The notes beneath the pieces are model-generated. The model did no database searches. It saw only the letters and a program-made list of their open reading frames with translations, and was not told the DNA's origin. A stretch of 9,363 bases of DNA from a virus (taxonomy: Duplodnaviria > Heunggongvirae > Uroviricota > Caudoviricetes): the IMG/VR virus record IMGVR_UViG_2711768060_000012, positions 1-9,363 of that record, one strand, 5' to 3'. Within the stretch, counting starts at the first letter, position 1. Every line of letters starts with the position of its first letter. Position numbers and translations under genes: made by a program. This document shows, piece after piece, positions 1 to 9,363 of the stretch.

Positions 1-1218
1 ATGAACAAACTGAGCGACACATTGTTAAGAAAACTTCATGGTAAGCCGGCGGAGAAAAATACGTTTTATAGTGATGGCGGAAATCTGAGCGTGAAATATT
101 TAACATCAGGGAAATTGACCTGGTATTTCACTTACAGGGCAGGAACGGGAAGAGGTACGCCACCGGAACGCCTGAAGCTGGGAAATTATCCTGATCTGAG
201 CCTGAAAGCAGCCAGGGAAAAAGCAGCACTGTGTCGCGCATGGCTGGCAGAGGGAAAAAATCCACGCCATGAGCTTAATTACTCCATACAGGAAGCACTA
301 AAGCCGGTAACGGTAGGCGATGCGATCAGCTACTGGCTGGAAATGCACGTAAAGGAAAACCGTGTCGATTACGTATGCCTGAAAAGCCGCCTTAATAATC
401 ACGTCATACAGCACATCGGCAATATGCCACTGGATAAATGCGAGTTACGTCACTGGCTGGCCTGTTTTGACCGGATACGCAAAAAATCACCCGTAACATC
501 TGGCCACATGATGCAGGCGTGCAAACAGGCGCTTAAGTTCTGCCGTAAACGTCGCTACGCAGTCAGTAACGTTCTGGATGATCTCAACGTGGTGGACGTT
601 GGCAAAAAGCCGGGCATAAGCGAACGCGTGCTTAGTAACAAAGAACTGGGCGAATTATTACAGGCGCTGGATAAAAAAATATTCCCGCCCTACTACAGCG
701 CACTAATCCGCCTCCTGATTGTGTTCGGCTGCCGGACCGGAGAACTGAGACTGTCGGAGATCAGGGAGTGGGATTTTAAGGAAATGCTCTGGACAGTACC
801 GAAGGAGCACAGCAAAACGAAGGTCGCCATATTCAGGCCAATACCGGAAAGCATTTTACCGTTCGTCACACAGCTGGTGGAGCAGAACCGACACACAGGG
901 CTATTACTCGGGGAACTGAAACAGGAAGCCAGCGTGTCGCAATACGGCAGATTCACGCACAAAAAATTAAACCATCCGCACTGGTCACTACACGATATAC
1001 GGCGCACGTTTACCACGATGCTGAACGATTTAGGCGTGGATCCGCATATTGTCGAGCAGCTTACCGCTCACCAGATGCCAGGGATGCAGCGAGTCTATAA
1101 CCACTCACGCTATATTGATGCGAAACGTAACGCGCTGGATATGTGGACAGAGCGATTAGAGATACTGGCGGGTGCTCACGAAAACGTAACCACACTGCCA
1201 ATAGCCAGAGAAATATAA
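1..1218 (+). CDS. int: Tyrosine site-specific integrase, P4-type
   Basis: 405-aa ORF. N-terminus (KLTWYFTYRAG...LKLGNYPDLSLKAAREKA) and C-terminus (HDIRRTFTTMLNDLGVDPHIVEQLTAHQ...VYNHSRY) match the P4/CP4-57 integrase pattern, including the HxxR and catalytic Tyr region. Confidence 0.9.
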   Translation: MNKLSDTLLRKLHGKPAEKNTFYSDGGNLSVKYLTSGKLTWYFTYRAGTGRGTPPERLKLGNYPDLSLKAAREKAALCRAWLAEGKNPRHELNYSIQEALKPVTVGDAISYWLEMHVKENRVDYVCLKSRLNNHVIQHIGNMPLDKCELRHWLACFDRIRKKSPVTSGHMMQACKQALKFCRKRRYAVSNVLDDLNVVDVGKKPGISERVLSNKELGELLQALDKKIFPPYYSALIRLLIVFGCRTGELRLSEIREWDFKEMLWTVPKEHSKTKVAIFRPIPESILPFVTQLVEQNRHTGLLLGELKQEASVSQYGRFTHKKLNHPHWSLHDIRRTFTTMLNDLGVDPHIVEQLTAHQMPGMQRVYNHSRYIDAKRNALDMWTERLEILAGAHENVTTLPIAREI

Positions 1219-1244
1219 TTTTTTTCGCGATTTTTCAGGACGTA

Positions 1245-1360
1245 CACAACGTGGAACAACGAGACACAACGACGAACAACGGCGAACAATCTGAAACAAA
1301 TCTGATTATCTATGATTATTTCTGATTAACTCCATATAAGTCTGATTTTCTGGTGATTTA
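1245..1360. repeat. Two 10-bp-phased direct repeat arrays: (A/C)ACAAC x6 (about 1246-1295) then TCTGATT-like x5 (1301-1359)
   Basis: ACAAC pentamers at 1246, 1256, 1266, 1276, 1286(ACAAT) and 1295; TCTGATT/TATGATT/GGTGATT at 1301, 1311, 1321, 1341 and 1353. Strict helical-turn spacing, immediately downstream of the int stop. Confidence 0.6.
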
Positions 1361-1594
1361 CTGTTTTTTTGTACATTGGCGAATCACTCTTAAAAATATG
1401 TAAAAAAGGTGTGAATGTAGAATTTTATGCCTTTGCATCACAATGAATTAAAAGAGTTTTTATTCTCATTACCCCACTTCTGTAAAATGACCGCCGCCAG
1501 TGTTTGCCATTCCATAAACACCCTGACACAATCCGACGCACCACAACACAATAGGACACCAAATAACTCTTTAAGAAATATCAAAGGGGGAATT

Positions 1595-1783
1595 GTGTTA
1601 AGCACAGATCGCTTTATACGTGAAAAAGAATGTCAGCAACTAACAGGCCTGAGCCGTTCATGTCGGTACCGCCTGGAAAAGGCCGGACAATTCCCATCAC
1701 GGCGTAAACTCGGCGGTCGTTCCGTTGGCTGGTCTTTATCCGAAGTTCTGGCATGGAAGGACAGCTGCGAGGCAGTTCACTAA
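1595..1783 (+). CDS. alpA: AlpA-family transcriptional regulator (phage/island activator, MerR-like HTH)
   Basis: The C-terminal 62 codons of track ORF 1427-1783 (VLSTDRFIREKECQQLTGLSRSCRYRLEKAGQFPSRRKLGGRSVGWSLSEVLAWKDS) resemble E. coli AlpA. GTG at 1595 is preceded by AAAGGGGG (1583-1590). The exact start is uncertain and could be an upstream in-frame ATG. Confidence 0.75.
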   Translation: MLSTDRFIREKECQQLTGLSRSCRYRLEKAGQFPSRRKLGGRSVGWSLSEVLAWKDSCEAVH

Positions 1784-1924
1784 TCAGACTGGCGGCATAC
1801 AGCCGCCCCCCATCCACTAACACAGAGATTTAACCATGAAGGCTGGATATACGCCCGAACAGGGGCGGGGGTTCGCTCGTCCTGGTGAAACTAAAAAGCC
1901 ATGTTATCGGGTATTTTCAGGCAT

Positions 1925-1952
1925 AAAAAAAGCGGCCCCGATAAGGAGCCGC
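1925..1952 (-). terminator. Intrinsic terminator, minus-strand oriented
   Basis: On the minus strand GCGGCUCC-UUAUC-GGGGCCGC forms an 8-bp stem (one G-U) followed by U7. The + strand version has a C/A mismatch and no U tract. Confidence 0.55.
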
Positions 1953-1996
1953 CTTTCTGAACAATTAACCTGCTGCACAAAAAATAAATATGAGCA
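1926..1996 (-). ncRNA. Candidate small RNA (~70 nt) between an extended -10 promoter and an intrinsic terminator
   Basis: Minus-strand TGaTATAAT (complement of + 2002-2010), then about 70 nt of U-rich sequence with a CUGCU/AGCAG hairpin, ending in the 1925-1952 terminator. No ORF with an RBS in the interval. Prediction only. Confidence 0.3.
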
Positions 1997-2001
1997 GTGG
2001 G

Positions 2002-2010
2002 ATTATATCA
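2002..2010 (-). promoter_or_regulatory. Extended -10 promoter element (TGnTATAAT) on the minus strand
   Basis: + strand ATTATATCA is the reverse complement of TGATATAAT. The -35 is weak (TTGTGG at non-optimal spacing). Confidence 0.35.
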
Positions 2011-2045
2011 GCCAGGTGACGAAGCGCCACAATTGCCGGATAACA

Positions 2046-2076
2046 GGCAAAACAAAGGCCACCCGCTACGGTGGCC
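2046..2076 (-). terminator. Intrinsic terminator for the leftward RHH-like gene
   Basis: Minus-strand GGCCACC-GUAGCG-GGUGGCC (7-bp stem) followed by UUUGUUUU, about 100 nt downstream of the stop at 2180. Confidence 0.55.
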
Positions 2077-2179
2077 CCTCGACACAAGCTACACGTTATC
2101 CACAACGCAAGAGAGCTGATTACTATGCCGTGATTACATCCGGTTGGCAATGTGATCAGTGTGCTGGCTTGCTGGTGGG

Positions 2180-2359
2180 CTATTCCTGCTCTTTGGCCTT
2201 GCGCCGCTGGCGGCGTTTGATCTCACCACGCATGGCTGTAACGATAAACTGCGCGTCTGTTTCGTTTTCCTCTTTGACCAAATTCATTTCGCTTAAAACT
2301 TCTAGAGGGATTCTAGCCGTTTTTTGTTGTGATTTGTTGTTGGTTGTACCCGTTGGCAT
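2180..2359 (-). CDS. Small basic DNA-binding protein, possibly ribbon-helix-helix fold (59 aa); candidate island regulator
   Basis: Internal ATG (complement of 2357-2359) of track ORF 2180-2536, preceded by a perfect SD AAGGAGG with 6-nt spacer. Product MPTGTTNNKSQQKTARIPLEVLSEMNLVKEENETDAQFIVTAMRGEIKRRQRRKAKEQE has a beta-strand/helix/helix layout and a basic tail. Candidate -10 TATACT at complement of 2391-2396. Confidence 0.55.
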   Translation of the reverse strand: MPTGTTNNKSQQKTARIPLEVLSEMNLVKEENETDAQFIVTAMRGEIKRRQRRKAKEQE

Positions 2360-2400
2360 TACTGGCCTCCTTACTGTTAGGTGGCGTTCAGTATACGTAG

Positions 2401-2471
2401 AAAAAAAAATAAAAAAAGGCTTGAAGTGCAAGTCACCTAAAAGTAGCATAACCTTTAAAGGTGACTTGCAC
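2401..2471. promoter_or_regulatory. A9TA7 tract plus 13-bp perfect inverted repeat (GTGCAAGTCACCT ... AGGTGACTTGCAC, arms 2426-2438 and 2459-2471); operator and/or minus-strand terminator
   Basis: Arms are exact reverse complements separated by 20 bp that contain the palindrome CCTTTAAAGG. On the minus strand the hairpin is followed by a long U tract. On the + strand it overlaps a candidate promoter (-35 TTGAAG 2421-2426, -10 TAGCAT 2444-2449) for the rightward operon. Confidence 0.5.
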
Positions 2472-2552
2472 CTTAAAGACAAAGCCCCGCAAGTGTCGTT
2501 ACCACTCGCAGGGCTTCTAACCACCAACGATAGCAAGATTATCGAGGCAGCT

Positions 2553-2756
2553 ATGAGAAATCATACCACACACCCGCAAGGGCGGGACTCGCACAACCTG
2601 AATAAATACATCTGGCGTTTTATCGCCCTGAGCACGGCACAACCGCGCGTGATTACCATTGAGGCCACCAGCGAACAGGAAGCACGCCAGCAATCCCCGG
2701 CTGGCTGCGTGATGGTATTCGCCGCCCGTATTCGTCAGGAGGTGCGCCATGATTAA
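2553..2756 (+). CDS. Small protein resembling Icd-like host cell division inhibitor family (67 aa)
   Basis: Last 67 codons of track ORF 1836-2756. ATG at 2553 is preceded by GAGG (2544-2547). KYIWRFIALSTAQPRVITIEATSEQEARQ...VFAARIRQ matches my recollection of Icd-like proteins in P4-like islands. The upstream part of the 306-aa ORF looks non-coding. Confidence 0.55.
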   Translation: MRNHTTHPQGRDSHNLNKYIWRFIALSTAQPRVITIEATSEQEARQQSPAGCVMVFAARIRQEVRHD

Positions 2757-2961
2757 TCTGTCACTTACCGACCTTAACCGCGTTCAGTTTCGTGAGAAAT
2801 TCACCGGGCAGCTACTGGTCAATGTGGAGAATGGACGCGTGGTGTGTAATTACCACCTGCCAGATGAATCAATTGTCGCAACAAGGGAATCATTACAGGA
2901 ACTCGCAGAACATGCCGGAATGATTAACGCGAATATTCAGGGGGTGCGCCATGTGCAATAA
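2749..2961 (+). CDS. Hypothetical protein (70 aa)
   Basis: ATG at 2749 is preceded by AGGAGG (2737-2742) and overlaps the upstream stop (translational coupling). No family recognised. Confidence 0.6.
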   Translation: MINLSLTDLNRVQFREKFTGQLLVNVENGRVVCNYHLPDESIVATRESLQELAEHAGMINANIQGVRHVQ

Positions 2962-3418
2962 CACCCATCCGGACGCAGCCGCCGAAGCTATCAAAACACT
3001 GATTGATGCGCTGATTGATATTTCTGTTATCGCGGACAGGGCGCATAAGCACGCCACCAGCGAAACAGAATATGCCGGGGCTTTCGTTCCTCACTCACTG
3101 GCTGTTATGCAGCTTAGCGCCGATATGGCGCTGAATGGGGCTAAAGCAATCCTGATTGCTGATTGTGAAAATGGGGGGGGGGTTATGCGTGATGATCGTT
3201 TTAATGCCCTGAAACAGGAATTTGATGGCGCACCGGAAGATACAGATATTGCGCTGTTATGTGTTGCTGACATGGTAAAAGCTGCATGTTTTTTACTGGA
3301 AACCGCCGAACATTCAGGAACGGGTAGCGATATTCTCAATATTGCGTCGGACTATGCGGAATATGTGGCAGAGGCACGTTACAGAAGAAAATTACCGGAG
3401 GATGTAAGCCATGGATAA
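2951..3418 (+). CDS. Hypothetical acidic protein (155 aa, about 26 D/E versus 12 K/R) containing an in-frame G10 tract
   Basis: ATG at 2951 overlaps the upstream stop. Coherent protein-like sequence on both sides of the G10 run at 3173-3182 (encodes ENGGGV). No family recognised. Confidence 0.65.
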   Translation: MCNNTHPDAAAEAIKTLIDALIDISVIADRAHKHATSETEYAGAFVPHSLAVMQLSADMALNGAKAILIADCENGGGVMRDDRFNALKQEFDGAPEDTDIALLCVADMVKAACFLLETAEHSGTGSDILNIASDYAEYVAEARYRRKLPEDVSHG

Positions 3419-3619
3419 AATCCCTTTCGATGTTCTTATTCATTCTGAGAATGCATTAATCAGGGCGCTTGAATTAAAAACGGTACTGGATGAATTAACC
3501 GAAAATAACACCGAGCGGGGGGGTATTTACTTTCTGCTTTCAGCACTCTGTTAACCCCGGTTATTGATGAATTAAACGCGGTTATGGAAATGCACGACAA
3601 GACCCGCGCAGAGGAATAA
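3411..3619 (+). pseudogene. Small gene (69 codons if corrected) interrupted by a frameshift at a G7 tract (3517-3523)
   Basis: ATG at 3411 with GGAGGA (3397-3402) opens MDKIPFDVLIHSENALIRALELKTVLDELTENNTERGG..., which stops at 3555. The -1/+2 frame opens right after a stop at 3506-3508 and continues YLLSAFSTLLTPVIDELNAVMEMHDKTRAEE to a stop at 3617-3619, just before the next gene. One extra G would fuse the two frames. Confidence 0.45.
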
Positions 3620-3624
3620 AAACC

Positions 3625-3924
3625 ATGAAAAAGAAAATTTCTGGCTTTACTGCCAGCGGCCCCGCTCGGCCTGAAATCCGCCCCGGCGATATTTTCCGGG
3701 ATAACTACGGCGGCACGGTAACGATTAAAAGCGTGGCGGGACGGTGCGTTACTTACCGCCGTGATGGGTACGGCTATGACTGCGTGATGCCTGTTTATCA
3801 GTTCCGGCGTGATTTTTCGCTGGTACAGGCCACACCACGCAGACAGCCCACCAGCAACGCAAAGGCACGGGCAAATATTCAGAAAATGAAAAACATGATT
3901 AACGCATTCAGGGGCACAAAATGA
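3625..3924 (+). CDS. Hypothetical small protein (99 aa), possibly a DUF4222-like prophage protein
   Basis: ATG at 3625 is preceded by GAGGAA. Stop overlaps the helicase start (ATGA at 3921). The IRPGDIFRDNYGGTVTIKSV...RDGYGYDCVMPV motif is tentatively recalled from small prophage proteins. Confidence 0.6.
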   Translation: MKKKISGFTASGPARPEIRPGDIFRDNYGGTVTIKSVAGRCVTYRRDGYGYDCVMPVYQFRRDFSLVQATPRRQPTSNAKARANIQKMKNMINAFRGTK

Positions 3925-5336
3925 AACTGGCACCGAACTTAAAAAAACAGCCACACGACAAAATGACCGAAGTCATTATTTTTGCGGGTAGTGATGCCTG
4001 GGCGCACGCGAAACAATGGCAGGAACAGGACGGGCGACTTGCTGGCGACAACGTGCCACCTGTATGGCTTGGAGACAGCCAGCTTGACGAACTGGCAGAC
4101 CTGAAAATCATCGATGATGGTCGCTATTGTGTCCGGCTGTACAAGGCAGGCCACATCAAGCCGTCAAATATTAATGCCATCGGGCAAAAGCTGGCGGCGG
4201 CAGGTGTACGGGATGCGAATTATTACCCTGAGGGAATGCACAGCCAGAAGCTGGAGAACTGGCACGACTACCTGCAACGGATCCGCGAACAGACAGAGCG
4301 CGGGGAAATACTTACTGACGAGCAATACAGCCAGCGAAAAACCACGCTACCAATGAGCATTGGATCTGCAGGGTACGACACACAGCTTGATTATGTCGTT
4401 AAGGGCGTGATTCCGGCTAATTCATTGTGCAGCACATACGGCGCGAGCGGTTCCTATAAATCGTTCCTCGCGTGTTCCTGGGCGTGTCATGTTGCCACGG
4501 GTCGCCACTGGGGAGGCCGCAGGGTGGCGCATGGTTCGGTGATGTATGTTGTCGGTGAAGGTGGCATTGGTGTCCCCCGCCGTATCAAAGCATGGGAAAT
4601 CGTTAATGATGAACGGGTGGAAAATCTGTACTTGGTAAACCGCCCGATTTTTCCGGCAGTTCCGCTTGATGTCGATGAAATGGTCATCGCTTCCCGCCAG
4701 GTTGAACGGGAAACGGGTAAACCGGTACGCATGATTATTCTGGATACGCTGGCGCGTTGCTTTGGCGGTAATGATGAAAATGACGCGCGGGATATGGGGG
4801 CGTTTATCCGTGGATGTGACGAACTGAAGCGACGCACAGGGGCCACGGTACTGGTGGTTCACCATTCCGGCAAGGATGAAACAAAGGGGGCGCGTGGTTC
4901 CAGTGCATTTCGTGCATCTCTGGACGCTGAATACCGTATTCGCCGGGAAGGTGCAGACAGTGAAGCCCTGGTTATCTCCTGTACCAAAATGAAGGACGCG
5001 GAGGAACTTAAAGAGGCTGCATACGATTTACGCGTGGTGGAGCTTTTTACCGACGCTGACAAGGAGTTAATCACGTCGCTGGTGGTTGTGGATAAGCCGC
5101 GCCCACCTGTTGAACTGGAACGCATCGAGGAAGCCGGGAACAAGACGGAGAATCATGCCGCGCTATGGGGCTGTATCCGTTCACGCACACAGCGCAGCGA
5201 TAAATGCACTATCCCGTTGTTGCGCGATGATATGAAAAAGCTGGGGTATGAGATGAAAAACTTCCGGCGCTGGCTGTACAAGCTGGAAAGAGACGGCGTT
5301 ATCGCTATTGACGGTGATGATGTGCGCCCACTGTAA
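3921..5336 (+). CDS. Replication protein: RepA-like / AAA_25 RecA-fold helicase with an N-terminal domain of unknown type
   Basis: 471-aa ORF. P-loop-like GASGSYKS (4440-4463), Walker B-like VRMIILDTLARCFGG, and LVVHHSGKD typical of RepA/DnaB-type helicases. Followed by an iteron array. Confidence 0.8.
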   Translation: MKLAPNLKKQPHDKMTEVIIFAGSDAWAHAKQWQEQDGRLAGDNVPPVWLGDSQLDELADLKIIDDGRYCVRLYKAGHIKPSNINAIGQKLAAAGVRDANYYPEGMHSQKLENWHDYLQRIREQTERGEILTDEQYSQRKTTLPMSIGSAGYDTQLDYVVKGVIPANSLCSTYGASGSYKSFLACSWACHVATGRHWGGRRVAHGSVMYVVGEGGIGVPRRIKAWEIVNDERVENLYLVNRPIFPAVPLDVDEMVIASRQVERETGKPVRMIILDTLARCFGGNDENDARDMGAFIRGCDELKRRTGATVLVVHHSGKDETKGARGSSAFRASLDAEYRIRREGADSEALVISCTKMKDAEELKEAAYDLRVVELFTDADKELITSLVVVDKPRPPVELERIEEAGNKTENHAALWGCIRSRTQRSDKCTIPLLRDDMKKLGYEMKNFRRWLYKLERDGVIAIDGDDVRPL

Positions 5337-5535
5337 AAAGTGAGGCGCAAAAGTGAGGGGATAGCAGGAACTGAACAAAAAGCAACCGCACCCCTCACTT
5401 TTCAACCTGTATATAGGCTCAAAAGTGAGGAATAAAAAACACATTGAAAAACAACATATTAGAATCACAAAAAAACAATGTTGGAAATCATGTGGGGAGC
5501 TTAAAAAGTGAGGTGAAAAAGTGGGGAATAGTGAG
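5336..5535. repeat. Iteron array, likely replication origin: AAAAGTGAGG repeated 5-6 times with an AT-rich core
   Basis: AAAAGTGAGG at 5336-5345, 5349-5358, 5421-5430 and 5504-5513; degenerate copy 5517-5526; inverted copy CCTCACTTTT at 5393-5402. AT-rich stretch 5431-5490. Directly downstream of the helicase gene. Confidence 0.6.
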
Positions 5536-5537
5536 AA

Positions 5538-5789
5538 ATGACCAGAAAAACCAGAGATAAGACAGCGCCAAAATATCGCGCATTAGACATGACAGAGCAC
5601 GCCTTAAAGGTGGCAATCAGAACGATAGACCGCCATGCCGGAGAAGGATACGCGAAAGCACATCCCGAACTGATAAGCGCATTCATGACCACAGCGGCGG
5701 CAAACTTTGCCACGCTGACAGAGCGGGAGATTGCGGAAGCGGAACAGGTGACAACCATCAACGTTAAAACCGGAGAGCAGACAGCATGA
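5538..5789 (+). CDS. Hypothetical protein (83 aa)
   Basis: ORF with a weak RBS. Stop overlaps the SSB start (ATGA at 5786), suggesting coupling. No family recognised. Confidence 0.5.
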   Translation: MTRKTRDKTAPKYRALDMTEHALKVAIRTIDRHAGEGYAKAHPELISAFMTTAAANFATLTEREIAEAEQVTTINVKTGEQTA

Positions 5790-6208
5790 CAGCACAGATA
5801 GCGGCTTACGGTCGGCTGGTGGCTGACCCTCAGTTAAAGACCACCAGCAAAGGGACACAAATGGCGATGGCGAGTATGGCGGTTCCCCTGCCGTGCAGCC
5901 AGGCAGATGACGGAACGGCGACGATGTGGTTATCCGTCCTGGCGTTTGGCAGACAGGCCGACGCACTGGCAAAACACCACAAAGGCGAACTGGTGAGCGT
6001 GGCGGGTAACATGCAGGTAAGCCAGTGGACAGGCCAGAACGGCGAAGCGCGGCAGGGCTGGCAGGTTATCGCAGACAGCGTAATCAGTGCGCGAACGGTG
6101 CGACCGGGCGGCAAAAAAGGCCAGCAGGGCCAGGCTACTGACGCACTGAACAGGGCAAAACAACAGGCGGGAAATGATGATCCGTACGGGGATAACATAC
6201 CGTTTTAA
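5786..6208 (+). CDS. ssb: Single-stranded DNA-binding protein (SSB, OB-fold)
   Basis: 140 aa. N-terminal OB-fold-like region, Gly/Gln-rich linker (GGKKGQQGQ) and acidic C-terminal tip ...DDPYGDNIPF, resembling the SSB DDDIPF tail. Confidence 0.8.
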   Translation: MTAQIAAYGRLVADPQLKTTSKGTQMAMASMAVPLPCSQADDGTATMWLSVLAFGRQADALAKHHKGELVSVAGNMQVSQWTGQNGEARQGWQVIADSVISARTVRPGGKKGQQGQATDALNRAKQQAGNDDPYGDNIPF

Positions 6209-6224
6209 GCAACGAGTGACAGAA

Positions 6225-6248
6225 GCCGGGGTTTTTCCCGGTTTTTTT
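6225..6248 (+). terminator. Intrinsic terminator after ssb
   Basis: CCGGG-GTTTTT-CCCGG hairpin (6226-6241) followed by T7 (6242-6248). Confidence 0.6.
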
Positions 6249-6295
6249 ATGGGTCCTTCCTGAAAAATGGAACACCGGGGGGATGCGGACGCGCA
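6242..6295 (+). repeat. 54-bp direct repeat, copy 1 (TTTTTTTATGGGTCCTTCCTGAAAAATGGAACACCGGGGGGATGCGGACGCGCA)
   Basis: Identical to 8713-8766. Starts at the T tract of the ssb terminator. Confidence 0.9.
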
Positions 6296-6476
6296 GAAAA
6301 CGGCTGGTTTTTGCATTTTCATGGTGGCGGCAGCATGTGTGATAATTAATTGATAATTAAAAATTATTTCTGTTTTCACCTGTACAATCTTTTTTCTCCC
6401 CCTGTCATCAGACCAGTTTGCAATTAATTGAAATATATAAACAAATTTGTTTTTCACCTGCCAAATGGAGCTGCCT

Positions 6477-6572
6477 ATGTCAAATGTGATTGGGATTGGT
6501 GATGCTTATCACTGGCACACAAAAATGAATATTGCATATTTTGCAATGCAATTGATCATCATTGCATTTTGA
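6477..6572 (+). CDS. Candidate 31-codon small ORF / leader peptide (MSNVIGIGDAYHWHTKMNIAYFAMQLIIIAF)
   Basis: ATG at 6477 is preceded by GGAG (6467-6470). Hydrophobic C-terminus. Overlaps the dyad-rich control region and could equally be non-coding. Confidence 0.2.
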   Translation: MSNVIGIGDAYHWHTKMNIAYFAMQLIIIAF

Positions 6573-6616
6573 TCAACACTGCACACTTCAAATATCAGTC
6601 TGAAACGAGGTGTTAC

Positions 6617-6820
6617 GTGAACGAAAAGAAAGCTGTATCGGTTTATCTCGACAATGAAACGGCGCTTGCCCTGTACCGTTTGCGCGAAGATATTCGCAAG
6701 AAAAATGCAGAAACGGGAATGGATCTTCCCACGCCAACAGTCGGCTGGCTTGCCCGTTCATTGTTGCGTCAAAGCCTGGGAATTAAGGCAGACAAAAAAG
6801 ATTTGCCTCATGAGGGGTAA
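6617..6820 (+). CDS. Small ribbon-helix-helix-like protein (67 aa) upstream of the capsid gene
   Basis: GTG at 6617 is preceded by GAGG (6607-6610) inside track ORF 6569-6820. KAVSVYLDNETALALYRLREDIRKK fits the RHH pattern of a beta-strand followed by a helix. Confidence 0.5.
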   Translation: MNEKKAVSVYLDNETALALYRLREDIRKKNAETGMDLPTPTVGWLARSLLRQSLGIKADKKDLPHEG

Positions 6821-6825
6821 GGTTG

Positions 6826-8667
6826 ATGGAAATTTCATTGTATGAGCCAATCGAAGGCGTAACCGCAAGACAGTTCCGCGATTCACTTATGGCTGCAAAA
6901 GGCCCGGTTACGGTTGCCATAAACAGCGGTGGCGGAAATGTAACTGACGGCATGGCGATGTTTAACGCCCTGAGAACGTACAAAGGCCACACGGTCGCAA
7001 GAATCGACGGTATCGCCGCATCAATGGCTACCATTGTTGCGCTCGGTGCCCGGCGTGTCGTGATGGCTGATAACGGCTGGTGGATGATCCATAACCCGTG
7101 GGGCGTTTTTGTTGGTGAATCGGAAGATCTCCGCAAAAAAGCCGACATGATGGAAAAAATCGGCAAGGCAATGCTTGATACCTACGTTGCCAAAACCGGA
7201 TTACCGGAATCAGAAATCAAAGCCATGATGGATGCTGAAACATGGCTGACGGCTGAGGAAGCGAAAGAAAAAGGATTTATTGATGAAATTTATCCGGCAG
7301 AGGGACAGGCATTAGCCATGGCCCCTGGTTGCGGATCACTGGTAGAGAAATTTACCAGAACGCCGGAAAGCATCATCGCATCGATGAAGAAAGGCGACAC
7401 GGGATCAGCAAACGAAAGAGAGAAGCGAAAAAAAGAAGCCGACGTTTTGTTTGCTTACTGGAAGAATTCTTCGTATGAGTGGTTGCCAGGAATTGTTGAA
7501 GAATTTATCAGCGGTTCCATCACTGCCGAAGAAGCACGTAAAAAACACTTAGAAAAACTGGCGGAAGAGACAACGCCGTGCGCAGGACCAGGAGCAATGA
7601 ACATGTATGCAGGTAACGGTAATATTGTTGGGGATTCAGTAAAAGCGGCGCTTATGGCACGCAGTGGACTGGCAGATGTGGAAAAAGATAACCGCTATAA
7701 CGGTTATTCATTGCGGGAACTGGCGCGCGCTTCTCTGGTGGATCGTGGGGTAAGCGGCATTCCCGGTAATCCGCTGGGCATGGTCGGAATGGCGTTTACT
7801 CACAGCAGTAGTGATTTTGGCGGCGTTCTTGCGGATGTGGCGCATAAATCATTACTGAAAGGCTGGGAAGATTCACCGGAGACGTTCCACGCCTGGACGA
7901 AAAAAGGCACTCTGACAGATTTTAAGGTTGCCCATCGTGTTGGTATGGATGGTTTTAAATCTTTGCGAAAAGTTTTACCAGGCAGTGAATACAAATACGC
8001 GTCCACGTCCGATCGCAGCGAGCCAATTGCACTGGCAACTTATGGCGAACTGTTCAGCATAGATCGCCAGGCAATCATCAATGACGATATGAGTGCGCTA
8101 ACTTCAATCCCCCAGCAAATGGGGGCAGCAGCAAGCCGCACAGTCGGAGATCTGGTTTATGCCGTTCTCGTGGCTAATCAGAGGATGGGCGATAAAAACC
8201 CGCTCTTTGATGCGAAACACAGCAATCTGATTAACAGCGAACTTGATATTCCAGGCCTGAGCGCAGCCCGTAAAGCTATGCGTATGCAAAAAAATAATGC
8301 TGGTGCTGTACTGAATATTCCGCCTCGTTTCCTGTTAGTTCCGGTAGAACTGGAAGACAGAGCAACCCAGCTTATTCGTTCTACGTCGCTACCAGACGCG
8401 CAGAACAGCGGTGTGTTTAATCCATACAATGATGCTCTGACAGTAATCACAGAAGCGCGGCTGGATGCCGACAGCGTGAAATCCTGGTATCTGCTTGCTG
8501 GTCAGGGAAGTGATACAATCGAAGTCGCTTATCTCGATGGTATTGATACCCCGTACCTGGAACAGCAGCAGGGCTTTACGGTTGATGGCGTTACTTTCAA
8601 AGTGCGCATTGATGCCGGAGTTTCTCCCCTGGACTGGCGCGGGATGGTTAAGTCATCAGGTGGCTAA
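6826..8667 (+). CDS. Prohead protease (ClpP/S14-like) fused to major capsid protein (HK97-fold)
   Basis: N-terminus AINSGGGNVTDGMAMFNALRTYKGHTVARIDGIAASMATIVALGARRVVMADNGWWMIHNPWG has ClpP-like Ser/His motifs. The long C-terminal domain resembles HK97-family capsid proteins. ATG at 6826; the track start at 6823 is TTG. Confidence 0.8.
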   Translation: MEISLYEPIEGVTARQFRDSLMAAKGPVTVAINSGGGNVTDGMAMFNALRTYKGHTVARIDGIAASMATIVALGARRVVMADNGWWMIHNPWGVFVGESEDLRKKADMMEKIGKAMLDTYVAKTGLPESEIKAMMDAETWLTAEEAKEKGFIDEIYPAEGQALAMAPGCGSLVEKFTRTPESIIASMKKGDTGSANEREKRKKEADVLFAYWKNSSYEWLPGIVEEFISGSITAEEARKKHLEKLAEETTPCAGPGAMNMYAGNGNIVGDSVKAALMARSGLADVEKDNRYNGYSLRELARASLVDRGVSGIPGNPLGMVGMAFTHSSSDFGGVLADVAHKSLLKGWEDSPETFHAWTKKGTLTDFKVAHRVGMDGFKSLRKVLPGSEYKYASTSDRSEPIALATYGELFSIDRQAIINDDMSALTSIPQQMGAAASRTVGDLVYAVLVANQRMGDKNPLFDAKHSNLINSELDIPGLSAARKAMRMQKNNAGAVLNIPPRFLLVPVELEDRATQLIRSTSLPDAQNSGVFNPYNDALTVITEARLDADSVKSWYLLAGQGSDTIEVAYLDGIDTPYLEQQQGFTVDGVTFKVRIDAGVSPLDWRGMVKSSGG

Positions 8668-8688
8668 TACACAATCAGGCATGTTATG

Positions 8689-8720
8689 TTTTTTTTGCGG
8701 CCTTCGGGCCGCTTTTTTTA
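8689..8720. terminator. Bidirectional intrinsic terminator after the capsid gene
   Basis: T8 - GCGGCC-TTCG-GGCCGC - T7: perfect 6-bp GC stem with a tetraloop, flanked by T tracts on both sides. Confidence 0.65.
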
Positions 8721-8766
8721 TGGGTCCTTCCTGAAAAATGGAACACCGGGGGGATGCGGACGCGCA
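8713..8766 (+). repeat. 54-bp direct repeat, copy 2
   Basis: Perfect match to 6242-6295. Starts at the T tract of the capsid terminator. Confidence 0.9.
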
Positions 8767-8880
8767 TAAATCGAGAGATTTTTGATATTTTATGCGTGCA
8801 GCAGCATAAGTTTAATGCTTTGATTTTTAACATTATTGATTTGTTTTGTTGAAAAAGCGACCGTGCAGTGAGGTGGTAAA

Positions 8881-9363
8881 GTGGAACTGAGCAAAATGCA
8901 GGTTAATGTCTCACAATTGGCAGACCTGGTAGGCATGAATCGAAATCTTGTTTCACGCCGTTTGCGTGAGCTGGAGCTTGTTGGCGGGAATGGTGAGAAT
9001 CTTAAATTGTATGAACTCGGTCCGGCACTTCAGGCACTACTGACCCCATCAATGAAAGAAAATGGTGAAATGTCACCACAGGATCGGAAAGCCTGGTATC
9101 AGTCAGAAAATGAAAGGCTGAAATTTGAAGCAGCTTCACGTGAATTACTCCCTGTCGAAGAGGTGGCCCGTGAATATTCATCTCTGGCTAAAGCCGTGGT
9201 CATGGTGCTGGAAACGTTACCGGATATTCTTGAGCGCGATTGCGCTCTCCAGCCTTCTGCAGTCATGCGAGTACAACGCATTATTGATGATCTACGTGAT
9301 GAAATGGCGAGAAAGATAGCAGAAAGCGATTCAGATAATGGCTGGCCTGCATGTGCAAGATGA
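8881..9363 (+). CDS. Terminase small subunit, lambda Nu1-like
   Basis: MQVNVSQLADLVGMNRNLVSRRLRELEL...NLKLYELGPALQAL parallels the Nu1 N-terminal wHTH (VNKKQLADIFGASIRTIQNWQEQGMP...NEVLYDSAAVIKWY). Start is either GTG 8881 (GAGGTGG upstream) or ATG 8896. Stop coincides with the window end. Confidence 0.75.
   Translation: MELSKMQVNVSQLADLVGMNRNLVSRRLRELELVGGNGENLKLYELGPALQALLTPSMKENGEMSPQDRKAWYQSENERLKFEAASRELLPVEEVAREYSSLAKAVVMVLETLPDILERDCALQPSAVMRVQRIIDDLRDEMARKIAESDSDNGWPACAR

Follow-up and report, generated by a model that had tools for sequence, protein, structure and literature searches.

A 54-bp direct repeat on either side of the capsid gene of a phage satellite is very probably the core of two lambda-type cos sites

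Why would a phage satellite carry the same 54 bp on either side of its capsid gene? The question is raised by a stretch of 9,363 nucleotides (nt), positions 1 to 9,363 of IMG/VR virus record IMGVR_UViG_2711768060_000012 (Caudoviricetes), which was analyzed at its full length and is here called the window. On its gene content, the window is a satellite of the EcCICFT073 family, i.e., a phage-inducible chromosomal island (PICI) of Gram-negative bacteria, that encodes a protease-capsid fusion of its own and a small terminase subunit (TerS) of the DUF1441 family. An earlier note on this DNA had pointed out the repeat and had offered three explanations for it: a shared late-promoter or activator-binding module, a cos- or pac-like packaging signal upstream of a Nu1-like TerS, or a recombination scar left by module exchange. 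We conclude that the repeat is very probably the cosQ-spacer-cosN segment of a lambda-type cos site and that the satellite would thus have two complete cos sites, in direct orientation, flanking its capsid gene.

The repeat itself was borne out by exact comparison. Positions 6242-6295 and 8713-8766 are identical over 54 bp in direct orientation, and the identity is broken on both sides. When the window was shuffled 50 times, the exact direct repeats that arose were at most 11 to 16 nt long. A looser similarity surrounds the repeat (99 nt at 85%, 6238-6336 and 8709-8807), and the two copies lie 2471 bp apart. Hairpin folding confirmed that each copy starts at the T-run of a different terminator, the two hairpins being unrelated in sequence. 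Both copies were found at the same places in the independently assembled relatives L021 and L149; therefore, an assembly artifact is excluded. The repeat is also not a common chromosomal element of the REP or ERIC kind, since matches to the 54-mer were found in 34 of 5,426 complete Escherichia coli genomes, at 81 to 94% identity and at a median of one place per genome. Two of these matches were inspected and lie ~120 bp upstream of the terS-terL genes (small and large terminase subunits) of a prophage. An exact search of IMG/VR for the 44-nt core gave no match because the relatives differ by 1 to 4 single-nucleotide polymorphisms.

The arrangement within the repeat is that of the DNA ends of lambda-like phages. 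Feiss et al. 2015 (PMC4669245) define cosQ as a highly conserved 7-bp site and state that lambda requires cosN plus cosB to start packaging and cosQ plus cosN to end it. The window holds just two copies of GGGTCCT, at 6251 and 8722. The lambda record ends in GGGTCCTTTCCGGTGATCCGACAGGTTACG and starts with GGGCGGCGACCT followed by CGCGGG, a layout like that of the repeat. In the records of phages cdtI and Tritos, the first base is the one aligned to window position 6280, and the right end closes with GGGTCCT and 22 further nt; the distance from GGGTCCT to the record start is 29 nt in these two phages, and that to the left end is 30 nt in lambda. Window positions 6280-6291 and 8751-8762 align with the opening 12 nt of the records of lambda, cdtI, and Tritos in a register certain to about ±2 nt, and the predicted 12-nt 5' cohesive end, GGGATGCGGACG, was placed by alignment, with the same tolerance, at 6280-6291 in the first copy (cos1). 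Beyond this end, 6292-6515 matches the opening 235 nt of the cdtI and Tritos records at 88% identity; both records start 12 nt upstream of the aligned part. When eleven satellite and phage sites were aligned, cosQ, the GGG that opens the overhang, the CGC that follows it, a TTTTTG block, and a TTGA block were invariant. The consensus for integration host factor (IHF), YAANNNNTTGATW, has only two matches in the window, 63 and 62 nt past the predicted nicks. At both sites, this consensus and candidate TerS elements, predicted to be bound, lie between cosN and terS, as in a cosB. The record ends, the lambda layout, the definition of cosQ, the invariant positions, and the IHF spacing together lead us to identify the 54-mer as a probable cosQ-spacer-cosN segment. 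The earlier list of explanations was thus right in part. Its packaging signal appears correct, and for both copies; the GCAGCATG-like and TTGAT motifs that it had noticed downstream correspond to the first TerS-site-like element and the IHF consensus of the two cosB regions. The recombination scar and the promoter fared less well, as described below.

The two sites differ in what follows the shared core. For comparison, phages were divided into type A (the cdtI, Qin, and Tritos phages) and type B (lambdoid prophages of the L019 and L020 kind, with the gene order terS-terL-portal-ClpP/MCP, where MCP is the major capsid protein). The cosB of cos1 is 88% identical to the DNA just upstream of terS in cdtI, Tritos, HannyBb, and Qin-like prophages. 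Next come 17 codons from the start of a type-A phage terS, which read MELPMSNVIGIGDAYHW, compared with MELLMSNVSGIGDAYYW in the TerS of cdtI. DNA homology to phages stops at 6515. Homology to L002, an E. coli island located beside abgR, runs from 5577 to 6488 and then stops, and that to L022, a satellite with only the second site (cos2), starts at 6624. Within the L002-like stretch, only the 54-bp cosQ-cosN patch is of type B, and it is identical to cos2. By these alignments, cos1 of the window combines a type-B cosN with a type-A cosB, and this chimera looks like the product of short-patch gene conversion after a module swap. The idea of a recombination scar therefore stands insofar as a patch identical to cos2 lies in an L002-like backbone. 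Cohesive-end joining was considered as the origin of the chimera and was rejected because the type-B patch reaches ~8 nt past the overhang and includes cosQ on the other side.

The cosB of cos2 is shorter than that of cos1, is unlike those of both phage types, and differs from the helper cosB of L019 and L020. Its motif is kept upstream of terS in L022, L023, and L024, and it covaries with the TerS N-terminal domain, which in the two satellites compared (L022 and L024) is 83 to 84% identical to that of the window. The window TerS and the type-B TerS of L020 are 43% identical in the N-terminal part and 63% identical in the C-terminal part. In L024, where the N-terminal domain is 84% identical and the cosB2 motif is kept, the C-terminal part is 51% identical and the adjacent terL is a different one. 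This pattern is as expected if the N-terminal domain reads the satellite cosB and the C-terminal part docks the helper large terminase subunit (TerL). The logic of packaging redirection would then be analogous to that of the TerS of Staphylococcus aureus pathogenicity islands (SaPIs) and of the Rpp protein of EcCICFT073. The positions of these and other features are collected in Table 1.

Table 1. Features of the window, with the evidence for each
Feature	Position	Strand	Evidence and remarks
Integrase (int)	1-1218		
AlpA	1597-1783		
Icd-like protein, then DUF4222 protein			Between AlpA and primase in gene order
AAA_25 primase/helicase	3921-5336		
Iterons AAAAGTGAGG	5334-5530		Direct and inverted; between primase gene and next open reading frame (ORF)
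SSB gene	5786..6208	+	Last of replication module; Pfam SSB, E = 7e-16; 96% amino acid identity to L002 SSB
Terminator hairpin after ssb	6216..6250	+	-15.9 kcal/mol, z -3.4; T-run is first 7 nt of copy 1
Copy 1, predicted cos1 core	6242..6295	+	T-run, cosQ GGGTCCT (6251-6257), 22-nt spacer, cosN
Predicted cosB of cos1, type A (cdtI/Qin/Tritos)	6296..6464	+	IHF consensus, 6343-6355
Three TTTTCA-YSKG elements	6316-6324, 6373-6382, 6451-6460	+	Candidate TerS sites; repeat family in cosB1
5' remnant of type-A phage terS	6465..6515	+	MELPMSNVIGIGDAYHW...; within short ORF 6447-6572
Small conserved ORF, 67 amino acids	6618..6820	+	Directly 5' of protease-capsid gene; L022 homologue in same place
ClpP-like prohead protease/major capsid protein fusion	6823..8667	+	Pfam CLP_protease, 2e-30, and Phage_capsid_4, 2e-54; PHROG 133, 4523
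Terminator hairpin after capsid gene, GCGGCC-TTCG-GGCCGC	8697-8712 (with T-run to 8719)	+	-13.3 kcal/mol, z -3.0; T-run starts copy 2
Copy 2, predicted cos2 core	8713..8766	+	cosQ, 8722-8728; predicted cohesive end, 8751-8762
Predicted cosB of cos2, satellite specific	8767..8880	+	Motif TTTTATGCGTGCAGCAGC, 8785-8802; IHF consensus, 8813-8825
Satellite TerS, DUF1441 family	8881..9363	+	Pfam DUF1441, 1.8e-39; PHROG 141 (terminase small subunit), 1.4e-54

The core points to a probable class of helper. Across 50 phage loci with a recognizable site, the cosN type follows the TerL type; the cosB, for its part, follows the TerS. Phages with a TerL at least 98% identical to that of L020 have GGGAT.C.GA.. 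overhangs, and the L019, L049, and L051 prophages have the window core CACCGGGGGGATGCGGACGCGCAGAAA exactly. In L019 and L020, the core CACCGGGGGGATGCGGA(C/T)GCGCAGAAA lies ~120 bp upstream of terS-terL-portal-ClpP/MCP. Both the link between cosN and TerL types and these prophage cores also speak for the identification of the repeat as part of a cos site. L021, which carries the capsid gene (100%) and TerS (99%) of the window, is inserted in a terL that is 99% identical to that of L020. The protease-capsid fusions of the window and of the candidate helper L020 are 51% identical in amino acid sequence. Type-B lambdoid prophages are the probable helpers of the island. Related TerS and capsid modules were also seen inside prophage terL, portal, or capsid genes in L021, L022, L024, L069, and L083, which are helper-embedded PICIs.

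The assignment of the window to the PICIs was made on the presence of int, alpA, and a primase with an origin, a size of ~10 kb, mostly co-oriented genes, and the absence of tail and lysis genes. The window has the hallmark int, alpA, and primase/replication module with an adjacent origin by Pfam and PHROG matches. The iterons are in the position expected for a PICI replication origin. DNA homology between the window and EcCICFT073 (L018) spans int-alpA-...-ssb; L002 is a closer homologue of the backbone. The integrase is of the chromosomal L002/CFT073 type, with 95% identity to L002 and no match in L021. The sister element L021 extends over ~10 kb between the halves of terL and ends ~210 bp past terS, the portal and terL being genes of the prophage around it; L002 ends after one further small rpp-like ORF. 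A capsid-forming PICI (cf-PICI) would encode portal, protease, capsid, head-tail connectors, TerS, and TerL. The head and packaging genes of the window element are the protease-capsid fusion and TerS only, and it is not a cf-PICI because portal and TerL are not encoded. A Pfam search with the 67-amino-acid ORF gave no match, and the PHROG match was weak.

Several other stretches of the window drew attention. Right after the integrase stop, 1244-1345 holds five RACAACG repeats with ~10-nt spacing and then four TCTGATT repeats, which could be integrase arm-type sites, AlpA binding sites, or part of attP. The ORF at 3411-3554 stops early, and another frame with a related peptide repeat runs to 3620, which suggests a frameshift at the G7 run at 3527-3533 (region 3411-3620); slippage, phase variation, or a sequencing error could account for it. 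A further homopolymer, a G10 run, occupies 3171-3180. On the minus strand, the terminator at 1922-1938 (region 1905-1938) has 17 nt (GGGCCGCTTTTTTTATG) in common with the cos2 terminator and continues into CCTGAAAAT, which resembles the 54-mer without its GGGTCCTT.

We then asked how common the arrangement is among 80 IMG/VR loci with a near-identical SSB, in which sites were found with a cos regular expression. The expression was loosened after it had missed cos2 of the window and a class-C cosQ variant, and the intergenic regions were reinspected. Among the non-truncated loci, there were two cos sites in 13, one in 7, four in 5, and none in 4. A search with the SSB of a set of species-representative genomes gave 9 distant loci only, none with a capsid or cos module. 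By their modules, the elements fall into class A (L002-like), class B (window-like), and class C (the L106, L139, and L165-L180 group). The order ssb-cos-MCP-cos was found in 13 elements of classes A and B and, by intergenic inspection, in 12 of 13 class-C elements. The capsid fusions of the three classes are only 46 to 62% identical; therefore, the cos-MCP-cos layout is old or recurrent. In class C, cos1 (between ssb and mcp) has the cosQ variant AGGTACT. The single cos that lies upstream of terS in L024 (9830-9900) has this cosQ too, and the variant may be a working alternative for another type of terminase. L102, L157, and L143 each have three cos sites, of which two are direct and the third is inverted, and the cosN types within an element clearly differ; an example of mixed types in one island is GGGCGGGAGCGG together with GGGCGGCAGACG plus lambda-like downstream sequence. 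At ~7650-7680, where cos1 would be, L022 reads TTTTTTTATACCTGAAAAT.

The two sites of an element change together. Between the window, L021, and L149, three positions in the 54-mer differ, and each change is present in both copies. Across 13 elements, the distance between the two sites was 3.5 per 50 nt within an element versus 11 to 12 between elements. A permutation test that made no correction for kinship gave p < 1e-4 for the full set and 0.001 when confined to class A. The window and L149 differ by 3 to 4 substitutions in the 54-mer, with an overall DNA identity of 90%, which points to homogenization rather than extreme conservation as the source of the perfect identity within the window. 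In class A, the two copies have different spacers, whereas cosQ, cosN, and the next 35 nt are identical, which looks like purifying selection.

From lambda biology and the experiments on EcCICFT073, a course of packaging can be proposed. After helper induction, the island would excise and replicate to concatemers. The satellite TerS would bind the cosB of cos2 through its divergent N-terminal DNA-binding domain and would recruit the helper TerL through its more conserved C-terminal part. The helper TerL would nick cosN to give 12-nt 5' cohesive ends, and DNA would be translocated rightward (terS to att to int ... ssb) until a downstream cosQ-cosN is met and cut. The exactly duplicated segment would be the part that the helper TerL must recognize. 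Termination in lambda needs cosQ and cosN and does not need a matching cosB; therefore, both cos1 and cos2 are potential termination sites, and a start at cos2 with a stop at cos1 is possible. In the simplest view of its origin, cos1 would be a captured helper cos that arrived with the capsid gene, given its helper-type cosB and phage terS stump. The stump suggests that the cos1-capsid segment may have begun as the captured left arm of a helper genome and then lost the genes from terS to portal. An L002-like island would first have swapped its capsid-cos2-terS module for a type-B-adapted one, and a short patch from cos2 would then have overwritten the cos1 core, so that both sites match the current type-B helper. 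Capture followed by deletion would be in line with the cycles of capture and loss that Nasr et al. 2023 (NAR Genom Bioinform) put forward.

The role of the second site is a separate matter. Among the possible reasons for keeping two sites, the likeliest would be an alternative entry or termination site and the compatibility of cohesive ends between sites; multiunit packaging from cos2 to cos1 would need compatible ends and would select for an identical cosN. Possible, but on the unlikely side, is that cos1 is a functionless relic that was captured with the capsid cassette, that cos2 alone is used, and that the identity reflects neutral gene conversion between short homologies, perhaps aided by Red-type recombinases of the helper or by double-strand ends at cos. 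Consistent with a relic are the terS stump that follows cos1, the altered cosQ of cos1 in class C, the satellites L022 and L024, with only cos2, and EcCICFT073, in which one cos is dispensable and its deletion raises transfer. However, cosQ, cosN, and the I2-like TTTTTG block of cos1 are intact over three diverged classes, and in the window, cos1 has its IHF site at the right spacing. The divergence of class-A spacers with identical cosQ and cosN also argues for purifying selection and against recent conversion; in the window, only the part of cos1 that TerL recognizes was replaced to match the new helper type. The AGGTACT variant, shared with the sole cos of L024, may itself be functional.

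We think it rather unlikely that the two sites serve to widen the range of helpers, with cos1 used by the helper's own TerS and cos2 by the satellite TerS, so that more than one type of phage could package the island. In class A (L002), cos1 is a complete cdtI/Qin-type cos and cos2 has another cosB; L102, L157, and L143 each combine different cosN types; and cos plasmids of EcCICFT073 were transferred by both lambda and phi80. The window does not fit this pattern, since its cos1 joins a type-B cosN to a type-A cosB. That combination was found in no sampled phage because the cosN type follows TerL and the cosB follows TerS. Neither a relic nor a wider helper range is incompatible with the identification of the cos cores.

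A bolder proposal, which we hold only tentatively and consider improbable as a whole, is that cos-capsid-cos is a working device. Here cos1, sharing only cosQ-cosN with cos2, would be dedicated to termination or would be an alternative entry site; the packaged length might be tuned, or genomes with and without the capsid gene might be switched. The capsid cassette, bounded by cohesive ends, could be exchanged between satellites and helpers, and selection for matching ends would drive the concerted evolution of the two sites.

By far the least probable reading is that the repeat turns on expression of the capsid and terminase genes, as a shared late promoter, an activator-binding module, or a cis-acting RNA. 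Each copy does stand between a terminator and a late gene, and no other promoter was detected for these genes, but a sigma-70 scan of 5300-9363 found no site, which leaves the promoter idea of the earlier note unsupported; the same class of sequence maps to the physical genome ends of lambda-like phages and corresponds to the virion DNA ends of related phages; and a structured RNA was rejected because folding of the 54-mer gave z scores of -0.05 and -0.18 on the two strands, no better than for shuffled sequences. Sigma-54 and P2 Ogr-type motifs, inspected by eye in the sequence, had unsuitable spacing, and an Rfam scan of the whole window at permissive E-values gave subthreshold chance matches, none of them on the repeat.

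Several points weigh against two functional cos sites. The nick positions come from alignment, and an alternative register, with GGGGGATGCGGA between two CG dinucleotides, is possible. The cdtI and Tritos ends are the ends of database records, and the basis of their determination is undocumented in the literature located. The covariation statistic ignores relatedness, and the elements were sampled with the cos regular expression. Two satellites (L022 and L024) manage with cos2 alone. If cos1 ended single-unit packaging, the packaged genomes would lack the capsid gene, which is hard to square with the conserved layout and argues for control of head filling or for multiunit packaging. In EcCICFT073, the deletion of one cos site increased transfer; therefore, a second site is not necessarily beneficial.

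The sites of the window can be compared with those of lambda, cdtI, Tritos, mEp213, and LLS (Gifsy-2-type heads). In all of them, GGGTCCT lies ~30 nt before a GC-rich 12-nt end, a predicted one in the window, that starts with GGG, a conserved CGC and a T-rich block follow cosN, the IHF consensus and repeated elements precede terS, and the site lies directly upstream of the small terminase gene. Unlike these phages, the window has the site twice per genome and encodes no large terminase. The predicted cohesive end of the window is GGGATGCGGACG, versus GGGCGGCGACCT in lambda, and each window cosQ is abutted by a terminator hairpin, which the phages lack.

The closest known system is EcCICFT073, in which two cos sites function in plasmid transfer and have a helper-like cosQ and cosN and a nonhelper cosB (PMC6092414, PMC6739421; Fillol-Salom et al. 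2018 ISME J, 2019 Mol Cell). The window resembles it in having two predicted cos sites with a helper-like cosQ and cosN and a nonhelper cosB, in its backbone (int, alpA, icd-like, DUF4222, primase, ssb, and capsid genes), and in the terminator and T-run that abut cosQ. The EcCICFT073 sites, at L018 47529 (+) and ~48339 (-), are in opposite orientation and enclose a small ORF, downstream of the capsid module and upstream of rppA, whereas those of the window are direct and lie around the capsid gene. EcCICFT073 redirects packaging by means of Rpp bound to the phage TerS, whereas the window has its own DUF1441 TerS; the capsid gene is lambda-E-like in EcCICFT073 and a ClpP-MCP fusion in the window. 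The chimeric cos1 is a further difference. RppA is c1503, which was located by counting on from c1499-c1500, the only function-matched ORFs in the RefSeq table, to the last small ORF, 48374-48655; the CFT073 ORF at 47660-48094 had been considered as rpp and was rejected by this count. In L002, the DUF1441 terS is followed by a 93-amino-acid ORF (12320-12601) with 75% identity to the ORF that occupies the rppA (c1503) position in EcCICFT073; therefore, L002 may combine TerS and Rpp.

Nasr et al. 2023 describe cos-region sequence common to PICI and helper in helper-embedded PICIs; duplicated cos sites flanking a capsid gene are not described there. L021, which lies in a prophage terL, carries the capsid, TerS, and dual-cos module of the window with an integrase that differs from the chromosomal type of the window. 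The cos-type SaPIs (SaPIbov5 and SaPIbov4) likewise have the cos site of the helper and a capsid protein homologue, and SaPIbov4 has been reported to have two putative cos sites. Unlike the window, they belong to an unrelated lineage with a Gram-positive host, need HNH-type cos phages, and encode no TerS. In a full-text literature search for PICI combined with "two cos sites," the Mol Cell paper and one review were the only results. A dual cos in a PICI has already been published, for EcCICFT073, and the window differs in orientation, placement, TerS, and the chimeric cos1.

These findings assign a probable function to an eye-catching repeat and name the probable class of helper, lambdoid prophages with a type-B TerL and a cosN of the GGGAT.C.GA.. 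family. The shared segment in the window would be exactly what lambda needs for termination, and the parts predicted to bind TerS differ. The two-cos puzzle of EcCICFT073 is thereby extended to a branch with capsid fusions, in which the predicted sites are direct, bracket the capsid gene, and appear to evolve in concert. No new kind of system is implied; rather, these elements may help to address why satellites retain more than a single cos site and how capsid cassettes come to be captured and exchanged.

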